A DNA stretch of 64,000 nt, taken from Antedon mediterranea (lineage: Eukaryota > Animalia > Echinodermata). The first letter of the stretch is position 1; each line of letters opens with the position of its first letter. Positions 2,207 to 63,826 of this stretch are shown piece after piece. A program made the position numbers and the translations under genes. Location of the stretch: positions 18,028,795 to 18,092,794 of the forward strand of contig NC_092670.1 in the NCBI RefSeq assembly GCF_964355755.1. Reading direction: 5' to 3'. The notes under the pieces are model-generated. The model ran no database searches and was not told the DNA's origin. It worked only from the letters and a program-made list of their open reading frames with translations.

Positions 2207-2333
2207 TTTAGTAATTCTGAGTTGTCCTCGTATGCACTCGTCAGGTCATGTGATGGCGGGCGGTCTGTGGTGTCAACCGCTAAAAAGATGTTACCATCTT
2301 CCAGATCTGGGTCAGCAAACATACTCACAGATG
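2207..2333 (-). CDS. HS1BP3: Distal HS1BP3 coding exon (exon 6)
   Basis: Acceptor cttacAG and donor GTAAGT. It starts in phase 1, matching the exon ending at 29158, and encodes ASVSMFADPDLEDGNIFLAVDTTDRPPSHDLTSAYEDNSELL, similar to HS1BP3 LFDDPDL..KELF. Confidence 0.75.
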
Positions 2334-5300
2334 CTGTAAGATATAATGTACCAAACCAAATAATAATTGTGTTAGATACTTCTTTAATCTATACAAAATC
2401 ACTTCCTTTTCAGTGCTGACGTATCCTCACGTATAACAATATTATTTGTTCAGTATTATAGGAAAATTCCTTAAATATAGCATATTATTTTGGCGCCTGT
2501 ATGATGGAAGTTTAGGTTAAGGGCTTGGGTTTATGATACAAAGGGCATGTGGCGCATTGTGTTGGACATTGGATTACTGATTGTGAGATCGTGAGAATCC
2601 AACTATCGCTGCATCGCTTATATCCTTAGGCAAGACACTTTACTTTGCCTCTCTCCACCCAGGTGTATAAATGGGTAACCGGTTAATTCAAGACAACTTA
2701 GCGCTGATTACTAGCTGCATTATTGGAGCATGTTTCCATAAATGTTCGATAAAAAAAAAAACCAGGATAATAATGTGAAGCACTTAGTAGCATTGTGCAA
2801 TAAGCCCAATATAATAATGAAGAACGAATACAGATATCACATGTGAAACACATGTGCTGCTGTATCATAGTAGTTGGATTGGATGGCAACTTAATATCTA
2901 TTGTGATCAACAGATAATAAAATCTGTGAGCATGAAATGAAGATTATCTGCAGCCTACAACAGAGAGTTAGTCCACTAGGCATTCATCTATTAAAAGACT
3001 GAAACTCTTTTCATCATCTATATAATTTATTTATTGTTTTGACAGTTAACTTAAAGGGATGACAAGTGTCAGCACTCATAGGATAGCAACAAACTGTCAA
3101 GGGTATACAAATAAATTGAAAAAGTAAATTGTCTATCTAAAAAAATCACAATAGACACAATCCGGAAATAAACTAGATGATTGTGATTTACTTTTAAACC
3201 AACTACTAAAATAAAGCTCATTAATAACATCAAAGATAAACATGGAAAAAAAACTAGGACATATGATGGAATAGCCATCTTTTTTAATTCTGCTTGATGA
3301 TCCTTCAAAACTGTTTACTTTAGACATTGATTGTGAGTCAAATTACTATATGATTAAGCTCTGTCTACACTATCCAACTAGTTTGACAAAAAAGTGTGAT
3401 GTGCCCAAATATGGTAGTGATATGCCCAAATATGGTATCACCCTGTTCATATATGGGCACATCAAATTTTTTGTCAAGCTAGTTTGATAGTGTAGACAGA
3501 GCTTTACGCTTCACAATTTCTTTACCTACTATCACAGAAAAAGGATGAAATTATTTCCAGGCCCGTAGCCAGGGGGGGGTTTTTATGGTTCGGGCGAACC
3601 CCCCCCTTTACAGCGAACCTCCCTTAACCGACTGCGAACTCCCATCCCCGACATGCCCAATACCTCACCCTCATCTCCGAAAATCGTCCAAATACGTGCC
3701 CCACAGTACAAAAAGTTGTTCGTAAATTAAAAAATTCGTAAACTCGTTCGGAATAACTCATACAGTACCTTCTTCCCTGTATGAGCGTACTTCGAGCGAT
3801 ATAGTCTGTAAAGAGTTGCAAATGAATTGCCGATTTTAACCTGAAAAATAAATGTTTGGTCCCTGCATGTAACATGATATTGACGTGTCTCACAGCGAGC
3901 TGGGGGACGAACGATTCGTACAAAGGACACCGCCAGACAACTGCGTACCAATTGTTTAGATCACTGGCAGTCAGGCAGCATGCATAAAGTATATAGCCTT
4001 CCGACATACATCAGTATTTATGTGTGGCTATGAAGTATAATGTATCAGAGGATTATAGTGAATATTAATATTTTACACTATAATATCTATGGTATCATGT
4101 GCTGTAGTTCACATTATGGCATCCGATTATTTTTTTCTAGACCACCAGCCGATACGTACTCAAATGTATCAATATCACCTATTTACATTGGCATATTTAA
4201 TTTCCTCAACAAATTGCTGTAAATAAATATTATAGATAGAGCTATAATAAGAATTGCATTTGCCTTCACCCAGTGTGCTTTTTTCGGGGCTTCTCCTAGA
4301 CGTACGTTCGCATTGAACTTGAACGCAAAACAAAATATCGAGTAAATGATCAAACAATCGGCGGTTTCGCACAGAGCACGCGCATCTAACATACGGCAAC
4401 AAATGTTATCGTTTAAATAGTCCACGAGTCCAAGTACGATCGTTTTGCTCATTGGTAGCATGCTGCATGAGAGTGTCTTTTCCGGCCATCTAGGGGTGTC
4501 ATTTAACAAAATTTGCTTCGCCTCTGGGGGGGGGGGTAGGTATGGGGGTGGGGCTGACCCAAATACTTAGTGTGCGAACCCCCCCCCCCCCCCCCCCCCT
4601 TGACAGATCCTGGCTACGGCCCTGATTTCAACATAACATTAGTTTAAACTTCCTCAGTTTTACATGTCCGGTTTCATTTAATACAGCTGTATGCACAATA
4701 GACCATTGAGATTCATATTAAATGTTAATATGCACTTAATACATTTTATATCATAAAACACTACTGGGCGGTAGCAGTATTAATTATTATGATCGCTGTT
4801 AAAAATTTAAAAATATGGGAATGTTCATGCAAGTAAATGGGATAGAATAATATGGCAAGCACTAAAGCATCAAATTTAAATGACTAAAAAAAGGATTATT
4901 TTTCCTGATTTTTTTGTACTACTGTAGCAAAAAAAAGTTTTGACACGAAAACAAAAATAATAATATTACCAAGAAGAGCAAATGTTTTATAATGAATAAT
5001 GTAAATGAGAATAATAAAGGTGGGTGATACCCACAAAGGGAAAAAACTGTTTTGACACGCTAGTTTTTACATGGTGATGTAAACGTGATAAAAAAACTCA
5101 TTAGAAAGATGTACGCATACGCAATAATACATACACCGATTTGTCTTGTTATATCAATGTAACACAGAAATACTTTCACGCAATAATCGTACGAAGGTAA
5201 CAACTGGTTACATTTTGTAAGATTAATGTACGTGTGAATCGTGTGTAAAAAAAATCTACTATTTGTTTTCAGAATTGCTTGCAAAAAAGGTATTTCTCAA

Positions 5301-8300
5301 GTGAGCTATTCACAGTAAATAAAAATCAATTTGTTGATAGGTATAATGATGATTACCTACAGCAGGCTCCTAAGGGGATACACAATTCTAATACTTTGTC
5401 TTTTAATCATTTTTAATCTAAGTTTTATTTTAAACATTAATGATATTCAATTCAATCGCAGATATGTAGTGACAAAACTGTATATCTTCTAAATAAGGAA
5501 TCGGGTCTGGTGGTTGGATATCAATTACTAGTACATGAAGTGAATACAGTGCCCATTAAATGAGATTTCGTCATCGTCTTGATGCGAATGTAGAATTTTC
5601 TTTAAGTTAAACTTTTTTAAAAATCACAAAAACAAAAATACTGCATATTTTAGACAATTCAGATTACTGTATATAAAAAAATTTTAAGAAAATAATCCTG
5701 ACATGATTCAACATCGCATTACATTTTATTCAATATATTTGACTTAAAACATTGAAACGTATGATATATTAAAATATACTACTGAAATTATTATCTGAAA
5801 CGAATAGAATAACGAGATACAATTTTATATTATACATACATATATTTTATTGTACACTCATAATAATTAGTAATATAATAGTATCTACTTACTATAATTT
5901 TATAATTATATATACAGAAAAAAGGGTATATATAAATATACAATCATGATAAATTGCAATAAATATAATAGATACAGTATATTGTAAGCCTACTTTAGTT
6001 GTATCTTGTAAATGTATATGATACAGAAACAAATAGTATTAGAGCTTGACTCCAACTTGGACGTAACGGCAGGATTGACTGATCACAAAGCGATGGACCA
6101 TTCAAACTGTCACATGGGAACCAAGCTTAACGGCATGCAGTATTGTAAAGCTCTGTCTACACTATCAAACTAGTTTGACAAAAAAAGTGTGATGTGCCCA
6201 AATATTGTAGTTATATGCCCAAATATGGTAGTGATATGACATCATCATGTCCATATATGGGCACATCACATTTTTTTGTCACATAAAGTTTGATAGTGTA
6301 GACAGAGCTTAATAAATAATTTCATAAACTGTAGCCAGGTAAACGATCAAAGTATGATTGTATTTCATACATTCAGATCACTTTTTTTTATAATTTTCAT
6401 GTAATTATAGATTATTTATACAATTATAATATTATATATATAATTCATCATGAAAATATAGTAAGCATAATCTATATACGTGTATAAATTTACGTAAGGG
6501 CATATTTACAAATCCTAATTAAATAATATATATTGAAAAATTCACATGAAGTTCAATTTTATGTACAATAAAACCTCATTAAGCGAGGGAGGGGGGAGGG
6601 GGGGGGTGGAAATGGGGTGATGGGTGTATGAGTAAAATGGCCTAAGTGGGTATTTCTTTAAAATGCAGTATATTAACTGTAAAACAAACAATATTAAAAA
6701 AGGAAAATAAATGGTAAGAATGACCAGAATAGTAGTAATGAGAAGTTTATTTTTCACAAATAACATACATCATCACATAGTCATCTGGAGTCGTCATCAA
6801 TTACCATCAACACATACCATGTCATAAACTGCAACATTTAAATCTTCATCACCACCATTGTCAATATATACAAGCTAATGTTAAGTTTTGTTGCTGATCA
6901 TGAACATATAGCCATTCTTAAGCGTGGTTCCCACTAGAACGCAACGTAACGCAGCGACGTATCGACGCAAAGTGTTGTATTGCGTAATCAGTGGGAACCG
7001 ACGATGCACTAGTGCTGCAAACATCGTAGGTTTGATTTCACGCAGGCAGGGGCAAACACAATTATTAGAAGGGCATTTTCTTAAGTTGCGTAGATTGTGT
7101 TACGTTGCATCGCTAGTGGGAACCAAGCTTTAAAATTAACATACTGTTTTGTGTACTATGTCAATGTGCAAATATAATAGTTATTTTACACGCAATCCAA
7201 AAAGTTAAATGTATTTATTCTGATCCTCAAGCTTAACTGTAAATTATGAGAAAATTCAGATTAAGCTCCCAACAGACACGGCAGCCAGCAGTGCAGCGAC
7301 CAGGAGACAATTCCCTACTTTCGAATAGTGTACCAAGCTATGTACACAAGACGGAAACGGCTAAGCATCTTAAAATATAAGAATGTTACAATATTTTTTG
7401 CAACAGTTTTGTTCACTCAAAGTGGCAGTCCAGTACACAAGACAAATATATACATGCTCTACATAAACAAAGCCTTAATATAATACAGCTGGTTTTGTCA
7501 TGAGAATACATGATTAATAAATATAAAAAATTATATAATTATTTCTTCATCCATTCATCATTTTATCAAACTCACTTTCTCCAGATCACTAGCCTGGCAT
7601 TCATACTTCTAGACCACTGAGCTTGTGCTGATGCCCAAGTAAGCAGTGGGTACTGCCCCAGCAGGATCATAATTTTATAGCTTTGCGTCTGGGAGTTGAG
7701 TAATTGGTCAGATGTTTGCCCTACTCCTACTTATATATAGAAATATAATGTTTCTTAAAATTCATATGAAAGACAGAAAGAGATATATATACACAATTTT
7801 TTTCGCAAATTGTAATGCAAAAGATAGGACATCAAATTAAGCTCAGCTATTCATTTCACTATTGTTAGCCCTTTGGGCTCCCCTATTTCAAAATCCTGTG
7901 TCCGCCACTGATGCCGTTCCATAGACGTGGACCAGAAAGGGATATGAAGTGAACACACTTGCTTTTCCTTTCCTTTAAACAGCAATATTAATCAAATCTC
8001 AGATGCAGTGAATAAGCCAAGCTTTTTTACAATGCATACATCTGAAAGAAAACGGAAACAAATTTAATCAACATTTAGATAAATCAAGGACACAAACTAA
8101 AAGGAATAGATTAAAATCAAAATTGCTAATATAGTAGCAAACATTTACTACTACTAAAAGCTTTGTATTTTGTTTTTATATTTAAAATAAGAGTTAGGCA
8201 AAACCATAGAGATATTAAACAAATAAATTTATTACAAGGAAATATTTCTCATATTTTACTAAACTCACCAATTAATGTTTAAAGTCTTTTTATTTTGTGC

Positions 8301-11300
8301 ATTACAATTTTTTGTGAAAATATAGGTTTTATGTTTAGCCATTAACAATGTACAACTACTTCAACTTATTTATGGTTTAAAAAAAAATAAAATATTTGCT
8401 TTTAACAAAATAGTATGTAAAACCATTTCTAATTTATTGCCTGACATGTAGTAAATTTTATTTTCAAAAAACAAACCAAATTCAATAAATTTACCTTTTT
8501 AAAAAAAAAAACGGTTCACTTTAAAAGTTTAAAACTCATACAGGAGACGAAATAGAAGTCATTTGCGTTCTTGTAATACTGTTGTAGCACTTACGGTCCA
8601 GTCGTCGGCGACACCTACCAAAGATCATATCCATAAAAGCGTGTCGAAACTTCTTTGACATCATATTATACAGAATTGGATTTATCATGGCACTTATGTA
8701 TAAGAAGGTGATGGATAGAGGGTAACAGTATTTATAATAGAAGTTCACTACAGAGTCTGACCAGTTCTCGAAGCCAAATATGGGCGAAACGCGGATGAGA
8801 TGATACGGTAACCAACAGATTAGGAAACAGATCGCAACAATCGCTGAAAATATAAAAATTACAAGTTTATACAATATTGTAAAAAACTAACAATATTTTA
8901 AAATCAAATTGGAATATTGATTATTTAAACATCCTTCTTCAAAGTTAAGTTAAAATAAAGTATGACATTCACTAATTTTATGCTGTGACTATTTCCCAGA
9001 AACTGTACAGTTACTGCATCAAATTGCAGTAAATTGATATACTGTAGGTATGCAGTAACTGCAGTAAATAAGTATGTAGTTACTTACAGTAAATACACAT
9101 ATGTATGCAGTTAATGCATCAATTGCAGAAAAATAACATATCGTATGTACAGTAATTGCAGTAAAGTGACATAATGCAGTCACTGCAGTAATTTCAGTAA
9201 ATCGACCCATTTGTATGTACTGTAGTCACTGCAGTATTTGCAGTAATTGACACATCCATATGCAATCACTGCAGTAATTGCAGTAAAATGACACATACAT
9301 ATGCAGTAATTACTGCAGTAATTGCAGTAAAATGAAAAAATGCGTACCAAGAAGTTTAACGACCTGACGTCTTAACACATCTACTTTGTCGTCTTCTTGT
9401 ATTTTATCAGTGTGTTTAATTTTGTTTGAGGGACGCAAGGCAGATGACCTCCTCAAATTAATATTCATATACTTTCCACTCAGCGTCCTCGCGATCAACA
9501 TGTACAACACGGTCATTGTACTCATCGGCAGAACGAAGAGAAATACAGCGGACGCCATGTAAAAGTAGTTTAATAATAAATTCACGTCAGTTTTGGTGGT
9601 GCAAACTTTAGATTCTGAAACACCTGGAATGAAAGTTACGACCTCATATGCTAACAGAAGCGGACTTGATATGGTATAACCTATGATCCATATAGGAATG
9701 ATCACCTTCTTTGTACGATTTTTTGAGAGGATGCTCTTCGCTTTGATAGGATGACAAATTGCAACGTAGCGTTCGATCGTAACGGCCGTAATACACATTA
9801 TCGTACAGTATGTTGCCGAGTCGATGATGTAGTAATGACCAACGCAGAAGAATGTCCCGAAAATCCATGGACGGTACTGTACAGCTGAAAAGATCTCTCG
9901 TGGTCCAGTTAACGTTACCAAAACCAAATCGGAGACAGCTAGACACAAGAGATAATAATTAATTGACGTTTGTAAACTTTTCGTTCTTAGTATTACGGAA
10001 ATTGTTAACGCGTTGCCGATTAATCCTGCTATGCAAAGAATACCGACAACAAGTACGTAAAAAATCATTTCATTCTTCCCGTTTGTTTTTGGCCCAACCA
10101 AACCATTTAAAATAACATCAGTTGCGTCATACATACATTTTGACGTGTCTAAGTCAGAAGTGATCCATAAATCTGGATCATGAGCGCTGGAATTAACATG
10201 GCACATGTCACCGAAATCAGAAGTGCATGGTTCGAGTGAATCCTGAACATTGTAATAGACATCTAACACAGCTGCAGATGTGTTTAGTCTTTTTACTGTT
10301 TCGCATAGGTAGTTTAAGCTGTGTATATACTTGTCAAATACGGTATCTGTCATTGTTATCAGCTGACTTGAATAAGACACACTAAATGGTCACCAACTAA
10401 TTCAGCAACAAATTGTCACAATCATTTCAGTTCTAAAAAAAAAAATAATTTAAATATGAAAAATTGATTTTATATTTACAAGCTGTATTTATTAATTTAG
10501 TTTTAGTGTAAATAATATTGGATGAAAAATGGATGAATCAATCAATTCAAATCTTTATCTCATTTTTTTCCAAGAATGATGAAAACTTCAGCACATTCAG
10601 AAATAGCGCGAGTTCACAGTGCCTGTATGGATGCCCTACTTTGTTCAACAATATTTACTTGATTGTCCGATTAAATTGTTGTGATTGGGAACACTTTATT
10701 GGCAACACTTTATTGGCAACACCGTGTCACACGTAGCACAAAAGTCAATTAATTAATCCTTTTTTAACATACTAATCTTGAAAACCATAATTACTCAATT
10801 TCAGATGCGAAAGCTGTCAAATTCTAATGATATATAATTGATAAATGTGGTACTGTTATACAAAATCTCCGGAGACTCAAGGCGTCAAATGAAACTTGAA
10901 CGAACGTGCCATTACCCAAAAAGTCTTCCTTGCATGTGTACCTTCATTTAACTGACATCCTATTAGATAAATAGTTTTTGGAAAAGGCATGTTTCGGAAT
11001 CATAATTTATTATGTACATTTTCAATATGAAACAAACACATTGTGAATAAAAAAAATCACAACATACATCAGATTCTAATTTAGATAAGGCGAATTATTG
11101 GATAATTTTTGACAATCAAAACACGGCCAGTAAGTTTTGGAATATTTTTTTATGACGATATGATTGAAAGACTAAAATCATTACCAACTAATAATAGATG
11201 AAAATTTACTACATTAAGTCAGCACTGTAATATAAATAATTATTTAGTGTTAGCAGACTTAACATATTTTCGAGAAAGTATGTCAACTTTTAAGTGTCGT

Positions 11301-14300
11301 ACATTCACATCATATCAATTTTTTTATTACAGTATTGTTATCCTATTACGCAGTATAACCTATAGCAATTACTATAATACCTGTTTTTAACAGCATTTCA
11401 TGCAATTTTTTTTCAAATTTGTTTTTAGTATCAAATTTTTACATTTAACCTAGCAGTAGAACAAAAGCTTGGTTTGCACTGCAACGCTTCACCGGATAGC
11501 GCAACGCATCAATTTTGACCAATTACAGGCGACAGTTCAGATGATCTGTCACTTGTTATTGGTGGAATTGCGTTCAAGTGAGAACTAAGCATAATGCAGG
11601 AAATGGGAGTTTATTATTCTACTGCAACTACTGCAGTAGCTACACTTTGTTTAAACTGCTTATTTTTTAATTTCTTTCCTTTATTTCGGATAGTATAGTA
11701 TATCCACATACAAAACATACTGTACAAGACAACAAATGTCACCTAGAAATTAACAATATTTTATAAAAAACAGACCTAAATATCCTAAAATATAATTTGC
11801 ACTATCTCATAAACTTACAAAATGTAGTCACTGCAGTACTGAACAGTAGAAGTAATCTCGACACGATCCCTATCGTAAACCATTTTTATAATTTTGCTTT
11901 ATAAACATCACAATAAAATGTATTTTCTCTTTGAAAATCTTGTTTATTTATTTCATGAATATGTTATCATAACCTTTATCTGAATTAAGAATGAATGCAA
12001 ATCCATTTCATTATAAACAACAACATAAAATACAAAGATAATGTCCAAGATTGCTAATTTGTAAGTCCAAAATGACCATTAAATCAAAATAAGTAATAGG
12101 TTACGTTCTCAGAAAGCATTTAAAGTAAATGCCAGACTATTATATTTAAAAAAATGAGGTATTATCATCCACCATAACAATTCATTACAGTATGTACAAT
12201 GATAAATGAATTAAAGGTTCACATTCACATTGTATTCTGAGACAGTTCAACAAAATGAAAAGAATAGTGAAGATTTTACCTGTTGTGTTGTAAGCTGTGG
12301 TCATTGACTAAGAGGTCTTGTGCAGTAGTAAGAGGGCTTTGGTTCAAATCCATTCAGGGAATATATTTACTTAATGCACAATTTCATTGATGGTCATTGA
12401 TTGAAATTGAATGACCATTTTGAAATTACCTTAATTTTAGCTGTTATTCATAGATACTGTTATATATACAGTAACTGGAATCAGGGGTGGATTCAAGTCG
12501 ATTTCGATAAATTTATGTAAATGATAGGACATCAAATTATATTCAGCACTTCATTTCACCATTTTTATGCCCTATTTCAAAATCCTGGGTCCTGGAAAAT
12601 GCTGACTCTTAATTTTAATTGTAACATAGTGCTTCTTTATGTTGGCAAATTTTATGAATCTGTTTTTTTAATGTAATTTAATATGTATTTTTTATTAATA
12701 AAAATACTAGTAAACATATTTTAATGAATAAATGATGAGACAGGGTTCTCTTAGCTTAATGTATTATTATCTGATCAAAGTAAAAACAATTTTTATTTAT
12801 TTTTCATATTTTCTGAATTATTTCTGTTAGCCTCATGGGCTTATACTAAGTTTCTATCTACCTACTAATCCTCATCAATAAGCTATTGGTTTAAAACTTT
12901 TTCTAGGCATTTAGACTAGAATTATATTATTACCCCCCACCATGAACAAGGTAACTTAATGCTTAACCTGTAACCCCAACCATGAACAAATCACAGATAT
13001 GACAATTCTAATAAACTTATTACAGATACCGTTACAGCTACAATATCAACTTACAGTTTGTGATTTTTTTTTGCACATTCAAAAATTATACTATTCTACC
13101 ATACCAACTGAACCACCAAATCAGCCAATGCATTTACCAACAAACAAACCAAACACACACAACTAACCAACTAATACCAGACACACCTACTAAACCACCT
13201 AACCAGTCAACACATCTACCAATAAACTAACCAACACACAAACCAACACACACAACTAACCAACTAATACCAGACACACCTACTAAACCACCTAACCAGT
13301 CAACACATCTACCAATACTAACCAACACACACAACTAACCAACTAATACCAGACACACCTACTAAACCACCTAACCAGTCAACACATCTACCAATACTAA
13401 CCAACACACACAAACCAACACACACAACTAACCAACTAATACCAGACACACCTACTAAACCACCTAACCAGCCGACACATCTACCAACAAAAAAACCAAC
13501 ACACACAACTAACCAACTAATACCAGACACACCTACTACACCACCTAACCAGCCAACACATCTACCAACAAACTAGCCAACACACAACAAACCAACTAAT
13601 ACCAGACACACCTACTACACCACCTAATCAGTCAACATATCTACCAAAAACTAACCAACCAATACCTGAATCATCTACGGTACTAAACCACTAACACATT
13701 AAACCAAAGAACCAACCACCAATACCAAACCACCTAACCAACACATCTGTACAATCCAATACAAAAAAACCAAACCAAACCAGCAACAGACCAACACAAG
13801 ATGATGATTCCACAGTAATAAGCTGGGACAAACGTTTTGCATTGCAACATGTGGAATGACTAGCAAAGGAAAATTAATAGTCCACAAGTACAGTAAAATG
13901 CTAATGCCATTTCATCCAACATCTATTATATTCATTTGTCTATTTATTTAAAAAGTTTGTAGCAAATTTTGTGAGATAAGACGCATATAAATGCCCACTT
14001 TCTGTCATTTGCCTTTTGCATGGCTTACTGTAGTACATGCCAATTTCAATGTCCAAAATGAGCATTAAATCAAAATAAAAGAAAGAGAAAATAGAAGATT
14101 TTTCCAGATAAACATTTAAAGTAATGCTCTACTATATTTGATAAAAGATGCTGCTTATGTCTGGATTCCACGTCCATTACATTATTTTTCGGCCCAATTT
14201 GATTGGGTCATATCTTGTATCTTATATTTATATTACCTCTGATAACACTACCTAGTTTTAACTGATGATTTTCAAATCTCATAGCATATTTGTTTATACT

Positions 14301-20300: not shown

Positions 20301-23300
20301 TATGATGATGATAATGATAACGATGATGATATGATGATGATGTTGATATGATGATGATGATAATGATGATGATATGATGATGATATGATGATGATGTTGA
20401 TGTAGATGATGATGATATGGTGATGATAATGATGATGAAAGGATGATGCTGATATGATGATATGACGATGATGAAATGATGATGTTGATATTATGATGAT
20501 GATGTAAATAATGATGAGATGATGATAATGTAGATGATGATGATATGAAGATGATAATGATGATGATATGATGATGTTGATGTAAATGATGATAAGATGA
20601 TGATAATGTAGATGATGATATGATAATGATAATGTTTACTTTTAGTTCTTTTATGTTACTATTTATGATTGATTCAAAATTAACTGTCAGTTTATAATTG
20701 GATTTAGATTCTTCCGACACTTTGACAAATATTTAGTGAATAAACATAAATATTACATTATGACTACACATATTATTCACAGTCTGTTCTGTCCTCTTAA
20801 TATTAATAGGATAAGAAAATATGAACAAATCAATGTTCTTGACTTTTTATCGCTTTCTCCCGTTTCTCATTTTTGCCATTTTACAATTGAGTTTTTCATA
20901 ATTTCCTAGTGGTTTAGAGTTTCTCGTTCTGATTAAAATTAAAATTGCATAATCCTTGCTAGGCATAGTATCATTTACTAATACAGCATACATGTAATAT
21001 GAACATACTTTAAATGTAAAGCTTTTCAAAATTCATCAAAGAACTTGTGGAATACAAGGACAAGAGGCACTTTATTGCAGTCATTCTACGTGGTTTAATG
21101 TTTTAATTACTATCAACTCTCTCTATATATTTTGTATATTATAAGAGAGAGTTTATACGTTTGTTCGTTATACACATTTTTCCTACAGCATGCATCCATA
21201 CATAAGAGGTACCAAAATGACTTTTTGTAGAATTAAATAATTTGCTAAAAATTGCTTACTTGCTAGTTTTGGGGGTTTTTTTTCTAGTTACATTCTAGAA
21301 AAGGTTTGCTAGTTTGTAGCCCTGATTGATTGTTGAAATGTACGACGCTGATACCCAGGTAAAATTATTGAAAATCTACGGAAAAGACTATATTTTTAGA
21401 AAGAAGAAGAAATGCTTTAATTTACAACATTTATCGTAAACGTTTTTGGTACTTAAGAATGCTCTTTGTAAAACTATCATCATTAACTTTCTGATTAGAT
21501 AGAATGCTGAGTTACATAAGCATCTTACAACCTACACTTGACCGTTTATTTTCATGTTTGTTTAAAACTGAATCATGAATTTATATTGCTGATTGCTCTT
21601 ATTGTCAATTCACAAATCTCTACAAACATGTACATCGCATCAAGATTACTTGTAAAGATTTGTTTGAAACGTTAACATTTATTTTAAACATACAATTTAA
21701 ACTTAATGAATTTCTTTATAATTTTAAAAACTAATGGAATTCATCGTAAAAAATAAAAATGCTTACCTTGAAAACTATCTTCAGAAAGTCTATGGTATTC
21801 AATAAACGATGCTGTCTGTACGCAAGGTCTGTGAAATGTTAAACAAAATGTCTGTAAAAAGCTGTAGAGATTTACAGTTTATTGTTAAACGTTAATTGTG
21901 CAGAAAAAATCTATCAATAATATTATCAAAAAGTTGAAGTAGAACTGATTCAATGCAACCCTCGTGTCTAAACGCATTCTGAGCAAGTTAGATGAATATA
22001 AATGATTTTAGAAACATTTTAAGAACTGGAATCACTACCAACACTCAGTTGAATGTAAGCTCCGCCTCTTTGTGGGAGGAGCCACCAGGATTACTTATTG
22101 TGATTGGTGATCTGTACAACAGCATAAACTTATATTACACTTTCAACAAGGGGTTTAAAAAACGGGAATTAATCTATAGGGGTTGCTAATGGTTTTCATC
22201 TACAAACGTGGAGCAGTAGCAATGCTTTATAAATAGTGCATTCACTTTGAAGAGTTCCTAATGCTTTTAAATAGTGCACTCAAGGATCCAACAAGCTTCT
22301 AATAGTAATTAGTGAACTGGTAAATTGTGCATTCATATAGCGGCTAGAGTAGGTCTAGTAAAAAATATACTGTAGTGAAATAAATGACACTATTGTATTT
22401 AAAGGGCCTTTCTTTGCCACAACCATTGGTACTGACAGGGTTTAAAACATGCTCATTAACTAGTATGTCAATAATAGCACTGAAAATTGTATTAATATTA
22501 GCTAGGCTAGCTCTGTAAGTAGGCTATAGTATGCTGGCACTAGTAGTAGTGCCCTCTAACAACCATATACTTGTTATGAACCTTGTCATTGTAAAATATT
22601 GCACAATGATTCACGTCCACTGGTCATATTGCGCAATATCAGAGACCTATGCTGGCCATAAAAAGAGACATACTGAACGAACTGCCCAACCCGTATCCTA
22701 CTGGGTGCAGATTGTTATGACCCACTTCGCCTCTCCCCTCCCACTCTCTCCGATTCCAGTGAGTAAATGTTGAACGACCCAATGTTATTTCTCAGTTTAA
22801 ATAGGTGTTTTAACTGACAAGATCAGCAGATTGCATGATAGACAATTTTCTGCCAATCAAAATGGTGCAGGACAGCTCGCCGTATGTCCATTAACAGGTC
22901 AATACTTGATCTGAAAAGTGGACCTCAGACATGAGAAGGTCAGACATGACCCATAGGACCAGAAGGCAGTATTTACTGGATTTAAGACCCTAACAGGCAT
23001 GTCCATTAACCCAAAATACAGATGTCATCAACTGATGAGGGGTCAGGCATGACCCATAGGACCATAAGGCAGTATTTACTGGATTAAGACCCTAATAGGC
23101 ATGTCCATTAGCCCAAAATACAGGTGTCTCCAACTGATGAGGGGTCAGGCATGACCCATAGGACCAGAAGGCAGTATTTACTGAATTAAGATCCTAACAG
23201 GCATGTCCATTAGCCCAAAATACAGGTGTCATCAACTGATGAGGGGTCAGACATGACTAGTCTGTAATAGGTAAACTTTTGTTCATAGGTTTCATGTATA

Positions 23301-26300
23301 ACAAATCAATTAAATCATTATTATCTAAATACTGTATTAAACTATGAATTAACTGAAATGTATAGTAATCTGTATATAAAATTTGCCATGGTTTTTTTCT
23401 CTCTTTAAAACAACACAAATAAAAACATTCACTTGTTTTGGTAACGGTTTTTTTTTTCATTCATTAATAATCTATGATGTATGTATCAATCAACATTCTG
23501 ATTAATATTACATACAGCTTATAAATCAATGGTAAATGCAAAGAGTTGAAGGTTACTTTATATTTGATTGCAAAGGTTAGAAATTCAAGTATACATAACA
23601 CTAATTGAAAAAGAGCAACACAGCTATAAAAACAAAAGAAATTAATCACAAAGAAAGAAAAAAAAAAAAACCTGAAGGAATGACAAGCTAAAATTATCAT
23701 CAGAAAAAGTTATCATCAGGGTTGTTTTGATAAAAACAATTTTAATAATCATAAAATGTTATGAAAATGGCATTGAAATATTCCAGTGGATTTGAACATT
23801 GACAATATAATAACAAAGATTAATATTTCAATTTGTATAACATTTTAGAGAAATACACTCATACTTTTACAAAAAACAAAACACCAATCAGTATGGGATG
23901 TTGTTTACTTTTACCTGTTATTTGTTAAGGTCTGCTAGTTGGACAAAAAAGTGTGATGTGGCCAAATATTATAGTGATATGACATCATTGTGTCCATATA
24001 TGGGCACATCACATTTTTTGTCATATAAAGTTTGATAGTGTAGACAGAGCTTTATGAAATGATTTAGCAACTTGGGGTGGTGGAAGTGACTCATAAACTT
24101 GTAAATTTAAACAAAAAAAAATCATAAATCATTTCAGTATAAAATGTAGTGCAGTAGAATAGCTTCGACATGAACTTTAAGCTTGGTTCCAACTATGACG
24201 CAATGTAAGGAAGTAACCGCAACGCAAGCAATTTGACCAATCACGATCATTTTTTAAGCTACTGAATGTAAAACAACGATTGATGAGTTAATAAGGGTAT
24301 ATCCGAAAAGCAAATTCTTAAGTACAACGAAAAACAGATGTAAAATGTTTTGACATCTTTCACAACTAACAGATTATAATGTCACTTACAATTTCTGAAA
24401 ACATACAGAGGATTGTAAAATAAAGATTTTGTTTTAAAAAGAGTAAAATATATTTAACAAAGTGATGGTTAGCCATCTTGATTTTCAATGAAATTAAGGA
24501 TGTGTGAATTTGCATTAAGTGATGAAGTCAGGAGACAGCAAGTCAAACACACACTACCTCGGTTAATTTCATTTTGTGAAACTCTATCATATTCAGAATA
24601 TTTAATGTATAGCATTTCAGCCCAAATCATTTTGTCATCTTACATCTTATTCTGGTCACATGACTGATGACAGAAAATATATATATATAAGCACTGTGAT
24701 TTCCATTATATTGGATAATAAGGAGGATATATCTGTACAATCAAACATTTTTTTTTCCTTGTTTTTTAGAGGTTTTTTTCTCAATAATTTGTCAGTTTCT
24801 ACGTACAGCACTCGGAGGTCTCATCACACTATATAAATCCAGGATATCATTATTATTACAGTATAATTAATTTTGTAGAGGGAAAACCCCTATTTTCCAC
24901 TAGAACAGTGAATAAAGTAAAGTTTACTTGACTGTGTATTTTATTGATTAGTATATGACTTTTCAAATTTAAAGGACTAAAATTGCAAAGTAAAGCATCA
25001 AGTAAAGCTACAATAACCACTAATGTGTTATGAAAGTGAATGCAAATCCACAAAAGCTACAGCTATAAACAGCACATTACAGATAGACATTAGAAAGTTT
25101 TTAATAGTAACTTCCTGATTTTGAACTTGAATCAATTAAGAATTTGCGTTGGTGTATACAGACAATCAATAAAACTGAGGTAAGAAAGGCGTTTAATAGT
25201 CACCATGAAATGTTGAAAAACTGTACAATTATCTCCATTGGAACCATATTTTTGCATTGGAACTTCTTTAGAATGCTCCAAATTTTTAATTACATCTAAT
25301 TTATATATTGCATATGTGACTGATCTAGAGAAAAAGTGACTTATGTCATCATTATTATATAATAATCTATAGCTGCATAAATGTGGTTTACGGCATATTA
25401 TGCAGGGAATCTTTGATTGGTTGTTTTATTCAAGTGTATGGCTCGACCCGGCTCGATGTGCAGTGATGCCTTCTATTGTATTTGCAGTAAATCAAGATCC
25501 TATCTTGCATAGGCCTATATTATAAATAATTTCTGAGAAAATCAATCAATCAATATATCTTTAAAATTTAAATCAATGCCTATAACCTATAATTTGTTGT
25601 CATAGTGACGAACTAGTTTTTATTTTTATATTGTATAAATGTTGAACAACATCCAACCTTTTTGAAAAATAATCTAAATTGGTATTTACTTTTTTATACT
25701 AAAAACCAATAAGAGAAGAAGTTAGAACAAGATGATGGAAATGGATTGGTAAAACACAAAATACGATTTGATTGGCTTAATGTTAGTGACAGTTATTTTA
25801 AAAAGCTGTGTTAATTGAAACAGAAAATGGCATTGCCCTTGACAGCACTTGTCTGTCTGTCTGTCTGTCTGTGTTTAAAAATGTTAAATCTACAATAAAA
25901 ACAGCATTCTTCTAGTTTGACAAAAAATTAGTGAATTTCCATATTTAAATAACAGTAGTGATGACAATTTAATTATTATTGAGTATATATATATATATAT
26001 CAGGAGGGTATGCGGACATCCTAATGACGCTTCCTGATGAGCGACGCGCAAATAAATCAAACATTTCTAGACGACTGCTTTTCAGTAAGCGTCTACACAT
26101 GGTCGTAGTCCCCATACCGTCCTATTACATAAACTCACTAATAAATAATTGTATAATTAATATCATTTGTATATGGAAATCTACAACAAACCTTAATTTA
26201 TGAAAACATATTGATGATTATTACTAATGACAAGGATGTCTGGGTTGAAGTCTGGAGCCACCATTAATGTAAGTTCTTATTTTTTTCAATATTTGCTAGA

Positions 26301-29300
26301 CATACAATAAACAATATTAATACACATATTTTAGATTTCCTGCCCCCCCCCCCCCCCCAAATTTTAACTTATAAGTTTGTTGACATTCCATGATCTAATT
26401 TGATCCATATGATCTTCAGATCTGTATAAGGTCATTGACCTGATTGATGTGAAAAATTGTGTTTTTTGTACACTTAATTATACGAATAAAATTATCTTAA
26501 TGAGAAAGGAATATTAGGATTCTCTAAATTTGTGTGTAATTTTTAGTTGACTCTACAGCTCACTATGTCGATCGTATGGTCGGTCGGTTGGTCGGTAAAC
26601 ACTAACTCAAATTTGAGCATGCGACTGCAGCCATGTATGTGGCCTTGTTTAAAAGGTTCTGAAGAAATAATCATTTTAGTATTTTTTTTCAATTTGATGA
26701 CCTACGCGTCAATGTTTTTGTCAGTTGTTACCTAAAATCTGCTAAAACTGTATAGAGAAATAGAGTGCACGTTCCAACTGTTGGGATGAGATGAGTTGTT
26801 CGTAGGTCGTTGATCGTCGCAACTCAAAAGCTCCCTATTAATCTAGCATAGGTAATCCAATACATAGTATGTTTACTATTCATTAATTGCTATTAGAAAT
26901 TGTTATACTTTCTTTAATTGGGTAAAGTTTGCTGAATCCAAAGTAATTAGTAAGGGCTTAAAACTGTTTCTATGTTCTGTATCTAGATTATTGTACTGTA
27001 CTACTACTGTATGACTTTATAGGGCTTAACATCTATCCTAGTAAACTACAAAATAAAGTAGTAATTTGCTAGTAGATTCTTAAAGCCTTCTAGTTACAAA
27101 TTTCACAGCTAGCTGATGTTTTCCGATAGTTTAGTAAAGTTACTAGTTTGATAAAAAAGTGTGATGTGCTCAAATATGTTAGTGATATGCCCAAATATGG
27201 TAATGATATGACATCATCATGTCCATTATGTGGGCACATCACATTTTTTTGTCACAGAAAGTTTGATAGTGTAGACAAGGCTTAAGGCTTAGTCTGTCAA
27301 TTTCTGTAAAGTTTATTTATATACCAAAAAACATTTGTTTTCTTGTGTGTGGCTTATTGTGTTGGTTAGATAGTGTAGAACTGGCAAGAGTTTACTAGTA
27401 CTATAGTAGATAAAAATAGTAAATTTCAAGCCCTGCCTCTAAGACAATTCTCAAGTAACTATAACCCTACTCTTAAGGAGGTAGTTGTCCAGGGTGTAGG
27501 TAATTATAATTCTACAAGATAGTTGTCCTAAAGGGACAGAAATCAGGGTTGTACTGGACAACAACTGACATCAAACAAACATATGACCTCAAGCACATCT
27601 GACATCAAACAGTGACCTCTGAATCAAACAGTGATCTTTGACATCAAACAGTGATCTCTGACATCAAACAGTAACCTCTGACATCAAACAGAGACCACTG
27701 ACCTAAAAATATAGTCCTCCAATGTATATTTAAAGTTTTTCAATTAACTAATAATGGATCTAGCTTGTTTGTATCCAACATTGTTTAGACCGATCCATTA
27801 AATTGATCATGTGCCCTGGGCAACATAACAATTCTTTTAGGGCTTATTGCTATAAGCTGAATAACAAATCCATGACAGACAGAATCAAATGAAGCTCAGA
27901 TTGGTCTTAAAAGCATTAAATGGAATTCTAAAAATAACAATCTTTCTTTTTCAATAAGAAAGTAATTCCAGTTTTATGTAAACAAGGTCTTCTGTACATG
28001 AAATCTATTATAAGCACAATTTTCTTAAATAAAAACGATGGATGTATACGACTCATTGGATGTTTGAAATTGCCGCAGTAATTCATACAAATTCATGTAA
28101 ACAGTTAAAATGTAATTTAATACGACTTACTTAGTAGTGATTAATGTGTATTCATTCCATTAAAAAAGATCAACATATTGAATCATTTCAAACATTGATG
28201 AGTATTTATGAATCTGAAGCTTTCCTGGGAATCAAGTAATCATGTAATATAAGGTAAAGCCCATCGGCTTCTCCTTTCTTTTTAGGATTCTAGGGTGGGC
28301 TTCATTTCGAGAAAGGCTCCTATTTAAGATGAACTTCTTATTTAAATTACCTTTGAAAACTAAAAAGAATGGCTTCTAAATGAAGCTACTACAAGAAGAT
28401 GCAATCAAAGTACCATTCGGAAAACAATAAACTATAAAATAAATGTACGAAGCATGATTGTTGAGATAATTAAGGGTTGTAGGTCATTACAAATTGATAT
28501 TTCAGACACGTTTCTTTCTTGAAAAGGAGCTCAGGATTGGATTCGAACCATGGAATAAAGAAAACCTATGGTCTTTCACGGTTCAGCCACTAATTTAGCC
28601 AACTGCGCTGTGCTGCTCTATTTATTTCATTACTGCACATAAAGACATATGAAAACAAAAAACAAAAACTTACAAATAAAGATGTCCAGCAATATCTCTC
28701 CGTCTATCTGTTCAATTGTGCAAAAAGCAGAAACTATTACTGTTTTAAATAAAATCAATGTTAAATGTCAAAACAATTGTTATTTACAATCACCACTAGT
28801 TAAAAGTTTTAGATATAGAAACATAGCAGATAAGAAGTATTAATACAATTATTATTATTACAAAAAACTGTACTCACCATTTTTTCTGTGAAACTTAAGC
28901 TTTGATGACATGGTGACGCGGAAATCTTTTGTATTACCTCCCTTGCCGATTTGACCGAAGTCTTTCAGGAGAAAAGCGCATTTCTAAACCGTAATTTTAC
29001 GAATCTCGTGCTACAAACCATCTTATTATAATTACGTAAAAAGTACAGGACAAATTTTTATCCAAATGTGCCTCAAAACAAATTGTGGAGGTTACCAATG
29101 TTTTCCACAAAGTGCAAAAATCAGAATGTTTGTTACAAATATTCGAAAGGAACCTACCATTAGGTTTTGGTTTCTCTTGCTTCGGTTTCTCTGGTTTCGG
29201 GTCAGCTGCTCGCATTAAACGGAATAGTTCATTGTCCTCTGCTGACTCTTCATCCTTTGTCAGTTCGTTACCCTCGCTAGATTCAATTTTTGGCTTAGAT

Positions 29301-32300
29301 GTTTTGGAAGTTCCTCCAAAAAGATTATCTTCTTCATCATCTAAGTCGCCAAACAGGTTAACCTCTTCCCGCTTTTCTCTAAAAAAAATTTTAAACTTAA
29401 ACGATGCAATGCACACAATCCAATTAAAAACTTCAATCAGTTCTTGATGTGATACTACTACCCAAGGTAGCTCAAAGAAAGTACTGGAATAAGAATAATA
29501 ACTGCTTTAACATCAAAAGAGGCTAAATTTGGACCAGAACATTAACACTCTACTCTCTCATCACGAAAGATGCAATGCACACAAGCCATAGACAGTATGT
29601 GCAGTACACTGGCCCTTGGTTGTAATCCGTTATCCAAGAAGACTTGTTCTACCATCAGAACTGTGGTCAAGGATGAAACTTGCATCTTAAGGCGCCCTAG
29701 CCTTAACCGCTTGACTGCAAGCTTAGAAGTAAGATACAGTCACACTGACTTTATGCCCAAAAAATTATACCTTCTCTAGGAATTATGGAAGAAAACTTGA
29801 AATTTTATTCTGTGTTTTCAACTATAGGTAATAATTGTTGTTTTAATTCCTTTATTTTTAATAGTTTCTGTTGCTAACATGAAGTGGATAGTTCTTTGCT
29901 CATTGCGCTAACTTTTTAAAAAGGTGTTAGAATGTAATAACATTTTAAATGGTAAATTGTAAATCAGAAAGTATCAAAATACAACTTGCATGCACCATAC
30001 AATTTATACATAAGAAACTATAAACTGTTAGTTGAGAAAATTTTCAAAAATTGTAAGATTGTATTTTGATAACCTATCACCAAACTTGTAATTTTTTTTG
30101 GTTGGTATTGATAAATTGCGTTGAAGATTTTGAAATTCTACTTGACTGATATTACATTAAACGTGTGAAAAAAAAAGCAACAACACTGTTACAGGAGTTT
30201 TAGCTTGCTGGTTAATATTCTCAGACTCCTGGGTTCAATTACTTAAGATTTGTTTATGTAGAAATCTTATTCTTTTTTTTTTTTTTTATTTAACAAAACT
30301 GTATAATAATGGTTGAGATTTACATAGCGCCATATCTATGATAATAATCATCTATGGACTTACACTATTCAACAACATTTTTCTTCTCTAAGGTTTTCCT
30401 CATGTTGGTGCTGTCGACGACTGGGCTATGTGAGTTGGTACACCGGGGGAACCCTCTACTCATCTTAAAAAATGTACTGGTTTTTTTAAGTGCACACACA
30501 TATTTTGTTTACATTTAACCTATAGTTTATAGTCCTCCGCGAAAAAATTGATCTACTACCAGAACTGTGGAGCGAGTGAACCTCGAACCTTTGCCATAAA
30601 AATTAAGGATTACAGTTATACTGTCGTAACTACTCGGCACTCACTCCCACATAAATTATTGCTGTAAATGTGTTGTTTTTCTTCAATATGTAGAGACTAA
30701 AGAACCTTAACATAAACCACTTAAATATACTACTAGCGAATGCTTTTACTATGCCATTTGATTTGTTTTGTTGAGATGTCACAGACAGGATAATGTCAGG
30801 TGTGAGTTATGTTGTAATGCATGTAAAAGAGACATTTCTATTATTTTTGTTAAACGAATAAAGACCATTCTCAAAACACACAACACTGTTTTATTTATTT
30901 TTTTCATTTATAGGGTGATGCATACATTCCTATTATTATATTTTCAAATTTACCTTGAAGCGACTGCATTGTTCACCAGTTTAAAAAAAAAAGGTTTGTA
31001 TGAATGAATGAATCCTTTTACAGGGTCACAAGTAATGTGGATTTTTTAAAAACATTTATCATAATTGACAACCAGAGGTTTTGAAGTCCAATGTATGACA
31101 CGCTACAAATTGAAAAATAGCATGTATGGTAAAATGCCTAATCTACTGTAGAAGAGAGAGATAACAAATTCACATAATAAAGTAAGAAGATAAAAGACCC
31201 ACTGGCGACAAGAGAGAAACTTTCAGGTTTAATGATTATACATACATCTTTTGTTCATTGGTCGACTGCTTCTTGTTTTCACCATTTATTTCTTTAGATT
31301 GTTTAGAGGGAGTTCTATTTCTATTTTCAGCTGTCTTTATTTGTTCCTCTGTAAGGCCTGCAAAATAATAAGAACAAAATTGTTTTTTTTCCACTACTTT
31401 CAATATTAATAATAAAGAATTATTTGTGTCTCTGAAATAATAATCACATTATACACCCTAAAGGAAAATAATAATATTATTCTCCATGTCGTTATAGTTA
31501 CTCATTAAAGTAACTTATGAAAGTAAAATGTTTAATCTAAGGTACAGTAGATGCCATTTATTGATTAAAACATTTTATAAAATATTTTATATATTTCTTC
31601 CCTTTAAAGCTCAGGTACAGGCAAGAATTTTAAATATAATATCTGGTTAATTGTACATAAATCAAATATTTAATAACCAAAATCAATACGAAAAAACATG
31701 AATTTCCCTTAATAATAATATGGGCAAATTCAAAATTTGGCAATATTCTGCCATAAAAACCAGGAAGACTTTTTATCAGTATTTAGGTAGTTAACCTACT
31801 GTAATGTAATAACATGTCTGGTGACTCCATAGCTTGAAAATAAAAATCTGAAGTTGAATAAAAATACCAAAAATGTAAAATTCAAGTTAAATTACCTATA
31901 TTTAGTCGTCTGTTAACATTTTTTACCACACCGTTTAGTTCATAGCTTTTTAAAATGCCTCTCTATTTACAAAATTTGTGTACAAAAGAATAGAGCTTTT
32001 ACTGTCCCCCCCCCCCCCCCCCACTAATAAGAAAGTACTTATTTTCAACAAGCTCGTGTAACACAAATAAAATACCAAAAATGTAATGAAACATAGGGGA
32101 AACTATAGATCGATAATTATTGGAGTGTATGATCAATAGAAATTTTTTGCCCGCACCTGGCCTTTAAAACAGAAAGTCTGTCTTTACCTCCGGAGGTATA
32201 TGTAGTCGATCACATGCATCTGCTTTATTTATTTATTTCATTTCCCAACCAACAGTGAACTCATGGTTCACCACTTACAGAAGGGAACACAGACAAACAC

Positions 32301-35300: not shown

Positions 35301-37379
35301 GAAGTGCTTCAAATTGGTTGTACCTTTTAGGAACCTGTAGAATACATAATGCATTAGTTGCCTTTATATAATACCTAAATAAATTCCTGTCATTTGATTG
35401 GACGATTGTGAGTCACATGGCATGCAATAGTACGCACTATTTAACGATCGTTTAATACTATTTTTTTCTTTTTTCGCGGACAAAAAAATTCTTTTCGCAT
35501 ATGAAAAAAAATACAAAATTACCAATACCAGAGATGTCTCTGCCATTCCTGTGATTCATTTGTCGTCTCGTGGAAATATAATCTTTCATTATTCTCCCTA
35601 ACCTCGCATTATTTGTACCATTCCACAAATATAAAACATTCATTATTTACATATTCAGGGCAGTCGCAGGACTATTTTAAGGAGGTTGCCTAAGAGTCCA
35701 GGGCCATAATAGAAACCAAGTATTTGCGGCACAGGCCCCCATGGTGGGGGCTGTGGCGAAGCAAATTTTGTAAAATGACACCACCTCTAGGTGACCGGAA
35801 ATGGTACTCTTACGTAAAATTCACGATTAATGGCACCTCTAGTTTTCGCGGCAAATGACACTCTATATCTATCGGGCTACAGTACAGCAGTATTTATCCC
35901 GCCTATTTTTCCGCCGGTAAAACACGCGACTAAGGATAACAATTTTTGCGTTCAATGCGAACGTCGGAAAGTCCCACACAAACTTACTTCCGGTAAGGTA
36001 ATATTATTCTAGCAATTATAATCAATTAATACAAATTAATTACTAGGCCATTATCAATTAATAATTTTAAAAAGTTAGACAGAAAATATGAAGCTGCCGC
36101 TATAAATATATTGAGCAAAACGTTGAATTTTATTATTTTGAAATAAATGCTAAATAAGTCAGTAAAACAACAATTTCCAAAATTCATTTTCATTTATCCA
36201 CTATACTGTACAACAGTGTTGCTCAATCCACACTCAAGAAAAGAAAATATGATCGAAATTTGCAGAAATAAATTACACTGTTATTTCAAAGTTTTGAATG
36301 TACGTAATTAGGCCTACTACAGAAATTCGGCCTAATATTACGGACATAGGGAAATGAAGATAGGGGTACTACACTACTAATACTTAAATGATGTTGAATC
36401 CCCGGCAAAATGCAATAATTAAGGACAAATCAACGACCTATATGACCGGGGGTTTTCCACGTACTGTATCTTCTCATGACGCACACAAGCAATCCAAAAA
36501 AATAAGCTGACCGCCGTTAAATTGTGCACCTATAACTTTACGCTGCAGTCAGTCAATTTACATATAGACTTTTCCAACCCTGGACTTCTGTAACGTTAAT
36601 GGTTAATATATATAATGAAATGGGATCTAAATTTTAATTTAGTGGCAGGAAAAAACATTTATTATGAAATTAAGGGTGTTGCCCGGGCAACTGGGGCAAC
36701 ACCCCTGTGTCCGCCCCTGATATTAGTGTACAGTCTGCATATCTGATTTGTTTTTTCAATCTACATCATCATGTAATCATCGTCATCAAACAGAGCAAAA
36801 TTGCATCGGTAGCCGGCATTGGTGTTTGGGAAGGGAGGTTGTGTCATTCGCCGGTATTCTGGCGGATAGCAAAGCATTGTTGTTGTTTGTGAGAGGAGGT
36901 TGTGTCTTCGGTCTTCCAACCAACTGTATATAACAAAACAAGCTCTCGAACGTGAAATAGTGCGCTTATTTTGAAAAACATGACCCATAATTGTTCAATC
37001 AAATGAAAGAACTGTCATGGCCAATATAATTTACTACTAGAGGCGAAACTCGAAAATGCCACTGAATATCAAATGTGTCTTGTGTCTAATTCTCACATTT
37101 AGCAATGCTTGCCTCAGCACTAGCTTGACACCCAAATCAACAACATTTGTAAAAAGTACAGTATTTTAAAAAAGTACATTCGTTCGTTCGTTTTTATTTC
37201 ACAATGCATCAAACTTAATATTTTTACATAATAAGTATTAAATAAAAAAATGCAAAGCCTGGAAAAGACCAAATAAGCTCAATATAGAGCTTTAAGCCTG
37301 GATTCACCAGTACAAAATACACTAATAATTGTATCAATTACAATAGACAATAATTAAATATTAATTAAAGTAGTAGAAA

Positions 37380-63647: not shown

Positions 63648-63826
63648 CTGCAGATAGTTTTGTAACATTAAATAATGGAATAGTGTGATTGAAAACGGAA
63701 ACTGTAGCAACCATGGTGCCGAAAATGAATATGTAGATGATAATGTTGGTGATGATTGCAATAATGTAAATGTAGGGGATCGGAATAGCATAAATAAAAA
63801 CTGTAGAAGATGTCATATACAACTAA

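Follow-up and report, generated by a model that had tools for sequence, protein, structure and literature searches.

A receptor gene within an intron of HS1BP3

The window analyzed here is the whole stretch of 64,000 nucleotides (nt) from Antedon mediterranea (assembly GCF_964355755.1, contig NC_092670.1, positions 18,028,795 to 18,092,794). Its minus strand carries six coding exons of HS1BP3 and, entirely inside the fifth HS1BP3 intron, a gene for a receptor of the G protein-coupled type (GPCR) (Table 1; positions are those of the window). The six exons, once joined, are letter-perfect for residues 1-283 of RefSeq XP_071961831.1 (P0003, 498 amino acids, aa); all have GT donors and the five internal ones have AG acceptors. 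The last 215 HS1BP3 codons have no match in the window and are placed past its left end. In RefSeq, the A. mediterranea HS1BP3 cluster consists of this protein and XP_071961839.1 (438 aa).

The receptor coding sequence (10353-9348 plus 8843-8536, minus strand) encodes a 437-aa protein identical to RefSeq XP_071948507.1 (P0007), which is named growth hormone secretagogue receptor type 1-like and has one isoform in RefSeq. It lies whole and intact within a single host intron on the same strand (10353-8536 within 29157-2334). A preliminary description made from the sequence alone had put a phase-1 end of HS1BP3 exon 5 at 29158, a further phase-1 exon at 2333-2207 and the receptor at 8536-10353 between them; all these coordinates hold. 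To this we add that the receptor coding region is split by an intron and is not a single block.

The HS1BP3 protein has an N-terminal PX domain (Pfam PX, E 2.8e-13). A search with the PX exon (35334-35127) returned two proteins from 8 candidates, the Antedon protein at 100% and an Anneissia japonica HCLS1-binding protein 3-like at 90%, while a search of protein representatives with HS1BP3 gave 199 matches at E <= 0.001. Of 9 HS1BP3-side clusters looked at by name, 6 carry the label HCLS1-binding protein 3-like, and the other 3 are labelled uncharacterised or hypothetical. When P0003 and P0002 were aligned with 26 of the 150 matches listed, likeness to named HS1BP3 proteins ran over the whole length, exon-6 block and C-terminal motif included. 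Orthologues share with the Antedon protein, in the same order, the PX domain, an acidic linker, the block F-x-DPDL / ED-x-x-ELL-x-I-x-DD, a proline/lysine-rich region and a DDI-x-x-YI...LDLF end. The segment at 2207-2333, which had been assigned to HS1BP3 on likeness, thus falls where expected in the joined protein, between the acidic linker and the proline-rich region. With a profile of this block built on 23 of the 27 non-Antedon rows (four truncated rows excluded), the exon-6 segment ranked 1 among 2001 six-frame segments, yet with an E of only 0.011. Taken alone, the motif argument for exon 6 is weaker than the RNA junction described below. A role of HS1BP3 in restraining autophagy, and its binding of lipid (phosphatidic acid) and of cortactin/HS1 SH3, are described for human and zebrafish only (PMC5412012).

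HS1BP3 exon 5 is spliced to exon 6 across the receptor gene

Five sequencing runs contain the receptor region, none of them recorded as RNA. Run X1 shows splicing at HS1BP3 exon 5, and on this ground we treated it as RNA; its contigs drop rare forms and give no strand. The only X1 contig placed on 28990-29500 (1/1), 1721 nt long, covers exactly 29158-29378. Its loose ends match exon 6 (2304-2333) and exon 4 (31246-31275), and neither sequence recurs in the window. Since 30 of 30 letters match and the matches are unique, chance is no issue for the junction, and exons 4, 5 and 6 are therefore joined with removal of the 26,824-nt intron. HS1BP3 exon 5 is spliced straight to exon 6 across the intron that contains the receptor gene. 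This 29158>2333 junction is the one that the preliminary description had proposed to look for.

The same contig goes 1470 letters beyond exon 5, against 773 coding letters left, which fits a full-length HS1BP3 mRNA. A processed pseudogene is an unlikely source of the spliced contig, as DNA run X3 gives a single contig uninterrupted through 28990-29500 and no spliced copy. No second X1 contig with another acceptor or with read-through at exon 5 was found in 28990-29500, where rare forms drop out. X1 has no cover past the exon-5 donor (28990-29157), which is not proof against a short isoform.

X1 also holds receptor sequence, as pieces at 8502-8844, 9348-10091 and 10075-10427. The first two end at 8844 and 9348 with 6 and 13 unaligned letters, respectively, while the DNA runs go through. 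We infer that they derive from spliced receptor mRNA, the unaligned letters presumably belonging to the other exon. Near-identical X1 pieces at 4949-6942 and 12876-13182 may be receptor untranslated region (UTR) or host pre-mRNA. Repeats swamped the placement of four runs on 1-20000, and no ranking of host against receptor is drawn from depth. None of the 15 joints listed for these runs (2045 others exist) lies at 10432, 9348 or 2333, which is no evidence of absence.

Sequence and placement of the receptor

The receptor matches Pfam 7tm_1 completely (E 2.8e-51, 174.9 bits against a cut-off of 30.5, profile 1-260 of 260) and has the class A motifs ERY (194), CWLP (345) and NPILY (390). The closest solved structures are NTSR1 (E 3e-53), GHSR (3e-47), NMUR1 (8e-47), MLNR (1e-39) and TRHR (2e-37), with NMUR2 also found. 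Among the matches listed, the top database relative comes from Lytechinus variegatus, a receptor at 40% identity (E 2e-85) whose own best match among the receptor-search matches is the Antedon protein. Sea-urchin receptor isoforms differ at the C-terminus only. Word-based searches of limited sensitivity did not find an Anneissia orthologue, which does not amount to absence (2 matches among 2318 candidates; 40 among 5365).

We built a tree of 20 rows in one tree search, comprising the query, 18 of the other 39 main-search matches and one row from another search; 21 bird and turtle motilin-receptor-like rows were left out. In this tree, the receptors of Antedon and Lytechinus group with each other (97/92), apart from both the clade of NTSR and GHSR/MLNR (96/93) and a protostome pyrokinin-type clade (88/98). 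GHSR-like and MLNR rows cluster at 100/100, their sister being NTSR (96/93), and exclude the echinoderm pair. The deeper order is without support (59/28). Within these 20 rows the receptor does not group with GHSR/MLNR as an orthologue of GHSR would, and the RefSeq name is a similarity label and not a statement of orthology. On these comparisons, the protein is assigned as an orphan class A peptide GPCR of the neurotensin/ghrelin/motilin/neuromedin U receptor group. Like its NTSR, GHSR and NMUR relatives, it probably has a neuropeptide as ligand and acts via a G protein.

The receptor intron lies directly before transmembrane helix (TM) 6. Vertebrate GHSR and MLNR have an intron at the same site. 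The motilin-receptor open reading frame (ORF) P0046 leaves its family's sequence at the position aligned with the Antedon phase-1 intron, as read-through would. Retention of the Antedon intron would yield a 347-aa form with five TM helices (5-TM), a form computed here and not observed in RNA. Such 5-TM forms are known for the ghrelin and motilin receptors (GHS-R1b and GPR38-B; PMC3477067).

Comparison with known nested genes

The preliminary description had stated that nested genes are more often antisense to their host. The bias is real but moderate, at 71-78%. In Drosophila, 71% of nested genes lie on the opposite strand and 29% on the same strand, and 73% of the same-strand ones are single-exon (Lee and Chang 2013, PMC3814207). 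Same-strand pairs account for 76 of 296 (26%) in human and 55 of 248 (22%) in mouse, with 74% and 78% on opposite strands (Assis 2021, PMC8467205). Same-strand nesting is therefore a known minority and not a rarity. With non-coding genes counted, the bias in strand shrinks to a slight one, and the largest intron of the host is the preferred site of nested genes (PMC11694760). Like the same-strand nested genes of flies and mammals, the Antedon receptor is a complete gene in the largest intron of its host. Fly same-strand nested genes are mostly single-exon, whereas the receptor has at least one intron and falls in the spliced subclass, which represents around 8% of fly nested genes (the product of the two published shares). 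Selection against mis-splicing has been proposed for nested fly genes (PMC3814207). The Antedon layout differs further in that it may be very old and not a young insertion.

Exonisation, retention and cryptic polyadenylation are effects that nested genes can have (PMC3192792), as shown mechanistically at H13/Mcts2 (PMC13309782). In the latter, an imprinted pair on the same strand, Mcts2 has its own nested promoter and the host undergoes intronic polyadenylation when Mcts2 is on; in contrast, no short host isoform of the H13 type is seen in X1 at the Antedon exon-5 donor. Omp in Capn5 is likewise on the same strand, with its own promoter and nearly exclusive expression giving separation by cell type, although Omp is single-exon (PMC6549253). 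Mouse Gpr21, in an intron of Rabgap1, is also a class A GPCR in a trafficking gene; a figure legend gives Gpr21 on the positive strand and Strbp opposite, implying the strand of the host (PMC4813635). Receptor and host are unrelated to those of Antedon, and the coding region of the Antedon receptor is split by an intron. A cassette in Gpr21 lowered downstream Rabgap1 mRNA 5-15 fold, so that such a locus can interfere (PMC4813635). Accordingly, a knockout of either Antedon gene would need a control for the other.

The Antedon pair is real and of a known type and, with the receptor probably run from its own promoter, would be a fairly ordinary same-strand gene-within-gene. In the literature on HS1BP3, Antedon and echinoderm receptors of this group, searched at record level, nothing was found on this locus or on a nested receptor. 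The pair is a verified case of a less common class, nested genes that are spliced and on the strand of their host. It also draws attention to an echinoderm peptide receptor that is an orphan and whose RefSeq name overstates orthology.

The receptor as a probable separate transcription unit

As the preliminary description had pointed out, the host transcript must pass the splice and poly(A) signals of the receptor. The true exon-6 acceptor ranks 62 of the 1209 AGs of intron 5 and is outranked by the receptor acceptors at 8843 (rank 12) and 10432 (rank 16), on a rough matrix of generic splice-site frequencies that was not trained on Antedon. The sense strand of the intron contains 56 AATAAA hexamers, and poly(A)-type hexamers lie 3' of the receptor stop at 8462, 8438, 5429, 5417 and 5407, among others. 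A further ATG is present at 10425, upstream of the receptor ORF. The intron also holds a candidate 62-nt exon with the best-scoring donor, which is possibly a 5' UTR exon of the receptor or a cryptic host exon. Many such decoys occur in any long AT-rich intron.

We calculated CpG observed/expected ratios with within-window repeats masked. The ratio is 0.47 at 12001-29157, 0.76 at 10354-12000, 1.23 over the receptor coding span and 0.77 below the receptor. The best change point is at 11571, with a log-likelihood ratio of 25.7 against a highest value of 9.0 in 300 permutations. A smaller CpG-retaining patch surrounds the 21.8-kb candidate exon. Invertebrate housekeeping gene bodies tend to lose CpG by methylation. 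The step fits a receptor unit that starts near 11.5-11.9 kb and is free of host gene-body methylation. Elsewhere in the window, the ratio is 1.02 at 46000-64000, on the side of a myosin gene described below, against 0.47 at 12001-29157, and this mosaic fits gene-body methylation of housekeeping genes.

We consider it probable that HS1BP3 and the receptor are two separate genes, the receptor having its own transcription unit with an intronic promoter, and cell type separating host from receptor. This reading is favored by RefSeq, where they are two distinct and complete proteins, by the clean contig joining exons 4, 5 and 6, the intact receptor ORF, its sea-urchin orthologue and the CpG step, by the early stop in a join of exon 5 to 10432 (described below), and by the precedents of Omp in Capn5 and Gpr21 in Rabgap1. 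Most cells would have an inactive receptor promoter, so that the host polymerase would read through and the receptor exons would not be recognised. A few receptor-expressing cells, by family analogy probably neurons or neuroendocrine cells, would make receptor mRNA that starts at around 11.5-11.9 kb or 22 kb and ends at a poly(A) signal below 8536. Only in these cells would interference with HS1BP3, if any, be expected.

Several observations weigh against this two-gene reading. X1 contains no receptor RNA start or upstream exon, its piece ending at 10427 with no loose letters, so the promoter is a deduced one. When CpG was compared with GpC, 10354-12000 did not differ significantly from the rest of the intron (p = 0.23). 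The CpG permutation ignores clustering by repeats, and CpG retention does not stop before the intron ends. For the 13 + 6 unaligned letters beside the receptor intron the identity is presumptive, and there is one RNA run only, whose tissue is not on record. Finally, HS1BP3 models of four other echinoderm species end at intron 5, and read-through may often fail.

Truncated HS1BP3 models in other echinoderms

In L. variegatus, the receptor (XP_041480623, 632 and 640) and an HS1BP3-like protein (XP_041480679) are all on one contig of 96,709,854 nt. In L. pictus, they also share one contig, with a length given as 44,300,000 nt, a suspiciously round number. This hints that the two genes are neighbors in sea urchins and that the layout could be ancient, nesting and strand not being thereby proven. 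Accession order is an imperfect guide, the nested Antedon pair itself being distant (XP_071948507 and XP_071961831).

The HS1BP3 models that end at the exon-5 boundary are 4 of the 4 isoforms of Anneissia (236-286 aa, with four different tails), both Lytechinus models (220 aa) and that of Patiria (229 aa); these models (P0002, P0004-P0006, P0049, P0050, P0200, P0201) are without the conserved C-terminal half, which is present in Antedon, Diadema and the hemichordate Glandiceps. The tails GE-stop, GK-stop and GKF resemble translation past a phase-1 donor (GTGAGT or GTAAGT), as judged from the proteins, and suggest the same intron in three echinoderm classes. The truncated models are either annotation failures or real short isoforms with the PX region only. 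The Antedon locus suggests why public HS1BP3 models of several echinoderms end after the PX region.

One explanation that takes these short forms as real is that receptor transcription ends the host early in intron 5, through intronic polyadenylation or a cryptic last exon, giving a PX-only HS1BP3, in the manner of H13/Mcts2. We hold this to be rather unlikely. The mechanism is known in a sense-sense pair (PMC13309782), and the repeated truncation in Anneissia japonica, both Lytechinus species and Patiria miniata, with donor-like tails, agrees with it. In human, PLD1 is displaced by the PX domain on its own, and cortactin binds to the C-terminal part (PMC5412012); such a switch would keep lipid binding and lose the proline-rich tail, and it is compatible with a receptor promoter of its own. 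Against it stand the single clean X1 contig, with no cover at 28990-29157, and the Antedon, Diadema and Glandiceps models, which are complete at the C-terminus. A search of the Antedon window for the tails of the short Anneissia isoforms gave no match in the intron (best E 0.17, outside it). A lizard model (P0065) is cut at about the same place, so that the truncation is not specific to echinoderms and could plausibly be a simple failure of annotation. Long introns with another gene inside often make gene predictors break off, which also counts against a switch.

A broader version joins age and function: the nesting would be older than the crinoid-sea urchin split and would also act as a switch, giving PX-only HS1BP3 where the receptor is on, or an in-frame exchange of ends such as a 5-TM receptor with the proline-rich tail of HS1BP3, and so would tie neuropeptide signalling to autophagy control across echinoderms. 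We regard this combination as quite unlikely. The crinoid-sea urchin split dates to around 480 million years ago. If crinoids and sea urchins do share the layout, it has persisted despite a presumed selection against nested genes of the spliced, same-strand kind. Sea urchins would then be a tractable system to understand the skipping of an entire spliced gene by its host. Most worth following are the possible conservation of the layout in echinoderms and the fact that HS1BP3 models are repeatedly truncated at intron 5.

Possible joins between the two units

Turning from the two-gene reading to a single unit, the receptor could lack a promoter of its own and be an alternative 3' end of HS1BP3, with 10432 joined to a host exon either directly or by way of 21828-21767. 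The acceptor-like site that precedes the receptor ATG by 79 nt calls for a donor upstream of it, and the best-scoring donor of the intron is at 21766. A join from exon 5 to 10432 meets a stop after three codons, or after 22 when made through the 62-nt candidate; the direct join therefore gives no fusion protein and would leave the receptor ORF as a downstream cistron. Two other joins are open in frame, exon 5 to 8843 (the PX region followed by TM6-7) and the first coding exon of the receptor to 2333 (a 5-TM receptor with the HS1BP3 tail), because the receptor intron and HS1BP3 intron 5 are both phase 1. The 5-TM ghrelin and motilin receptors mentioned above lend such a form some plausibility (PMC3477067). 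Yet a phase match between two introns has a one-in-three chance, and neither join was seen. The 1721-nt X1 contig shows no branch at 29158 or 2333, though X1 has receptor sequence, RefSeq gives one receptor isoform, and the sea-urchin isoforms vary at the C-terminus alone. This check for chimeras in X1 covered exon 5, with host exons 1-3 and 21828-21767 outside it. We judge a shared promoter or chimeric RNAs to be unlikely. The competition or chimeric RNAs that the preliminary description had considered are not shown by X1, one run whose contigs drop rare forms and whose only contig at exon 5 is clean.

It is very improbable that the receptor really lies elsewhere and was misjoined at one of the many repeats: no DNA contig among those listed spans the interval and pieces break at repeats, but both proteins come from one 41.4-Mb contig, three DNA runs (one sample) have depth in 30 of 30 bins of 1-20000 with long near-identical pieces around the receptor, and the L. 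variegatus orthologues are on one 96.7-Mb contig with near-adjacent accessions.

Table 1. Features of the HS1BP3 and receptor genes in the window (X1, sequencing run treated as RNA)
Feature	Position	Strand	Description	Evidence
HS1BP3 coding exon 1	40410..40438	-	ATG at 40438, phase 2	Equals residues 1-10 of XP_071961831.1
HS1BP3 coding exon 2	39351..39504	-	Phase 0	tblastn with Anneissia protein P0002; exon join
HS1BP3 coding exon 3	35127..35334	-	PX domain core, phase 1	Pfam PX E 8.7e-14
HS1BP3 coding exon 4	31246..31357	-	Phase 2	3' end equals loose end of X1 contig
HS1BP3 coding exon 5	29158..29378	-	Acidic region; TAG acceptor, phase-1 donor GTAGGT	X1 contig covers exactly
HS1BP3 intron 5	2334..29157	-	26,824 nt, receptor gene inside	X1 junction 29158>2333; RefSeq P0001/P0003
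HS1BP3 coding exon 6	2207..2333	-	FADPDL..EDNSELL block; CAG acceptor, GTAAGT donor	
GPCR first coding exon	9348..10432	-	ATG 10353, TM1-TM5 and intracellular loop 3, phase-1 donor; acceptor-like site 10433/10432, putatively used	
GPCR intron	8844..9347	-	504 nt, phase 1, directly before TM6	
GPCR second coding exon	8536..8843	-	TM6, TM7, C-tail, stop	X1 piece 8502-8844
Possible long GPCR 3' UTR or host pre-mRNA	4949..8535			X1 pieces 4949-5278, 5265-5693, 5852-6169, 6626-6942, ~1% differences
Candidate 62-nt exon	21767..21828	-	Open in two frames	Donor rank 1/1637 GTs (at 21766), acceptor 5/1209 AGs
Candidate GPCR promoter zone	11400..11900	-	Tentative, weak	CpG-poor to CpG-retaining step near 11571; TATA-like site 11890

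Neighboring genes and repeats

UQCRB (cytochrome bc1 subunit 7; Pfam UCR_14kD E 1.9e-19) is on the plus strand, with a likely ATG near 40730. HS1BP3 (minus strand, ATG 40438) and UQCRB, which together take up 40410-40744 and 41343-42500 here, are head to head, around 300 nt apart, which suggests a shared bidirectional promoter. No Rfam match was found in 1-42000.

The minus strand at 54538-63667 carries exons of an unconventional myosin, with motor pieces at 63.7-59.9 kb and an IQ motif near 59.6 kb. Next on this strand come exons of an MH2 domain (54843-54541, Pfam MH2 E 3.4e-13), suggesting a myosin with a Smad-type MH2 tail. A layout of myosin and MH2 occurs in a holozoan myosin class. Antisense within this myosin-MH2 gene, the plus strand at 54974-57922 contains a 982-codon ORF with a reverse transcriptase (Pfam RVT_1 E 8e-37), from a retrotransposon of the type without long terminal repeats. 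HS1BP3 intron 2 contains, on the host strand (37566-38861, minus), a 5'-truncated reverse transcriptase frame of long interspersed element type, 431 codons in length (RVT_1 E 1.8e-30).

Within HS1BP3 intron 5, long His/Ile/Ser frames at 19925-20732 were rejected as genes, being a TGA/TCA microsatellite, and the arrays at 13.1-13.7 kb and 16.4-17.4 kb are minisatellites. A very high-copy short element is present in six copies (3353-3511, 6143-6330, 14897-15046, 19094-19235, 23935-24065 and 27142-27290); it has inverted ends and an inner 21-nt repeat, is probably a miniature DNA transposon, and dominates read depth.

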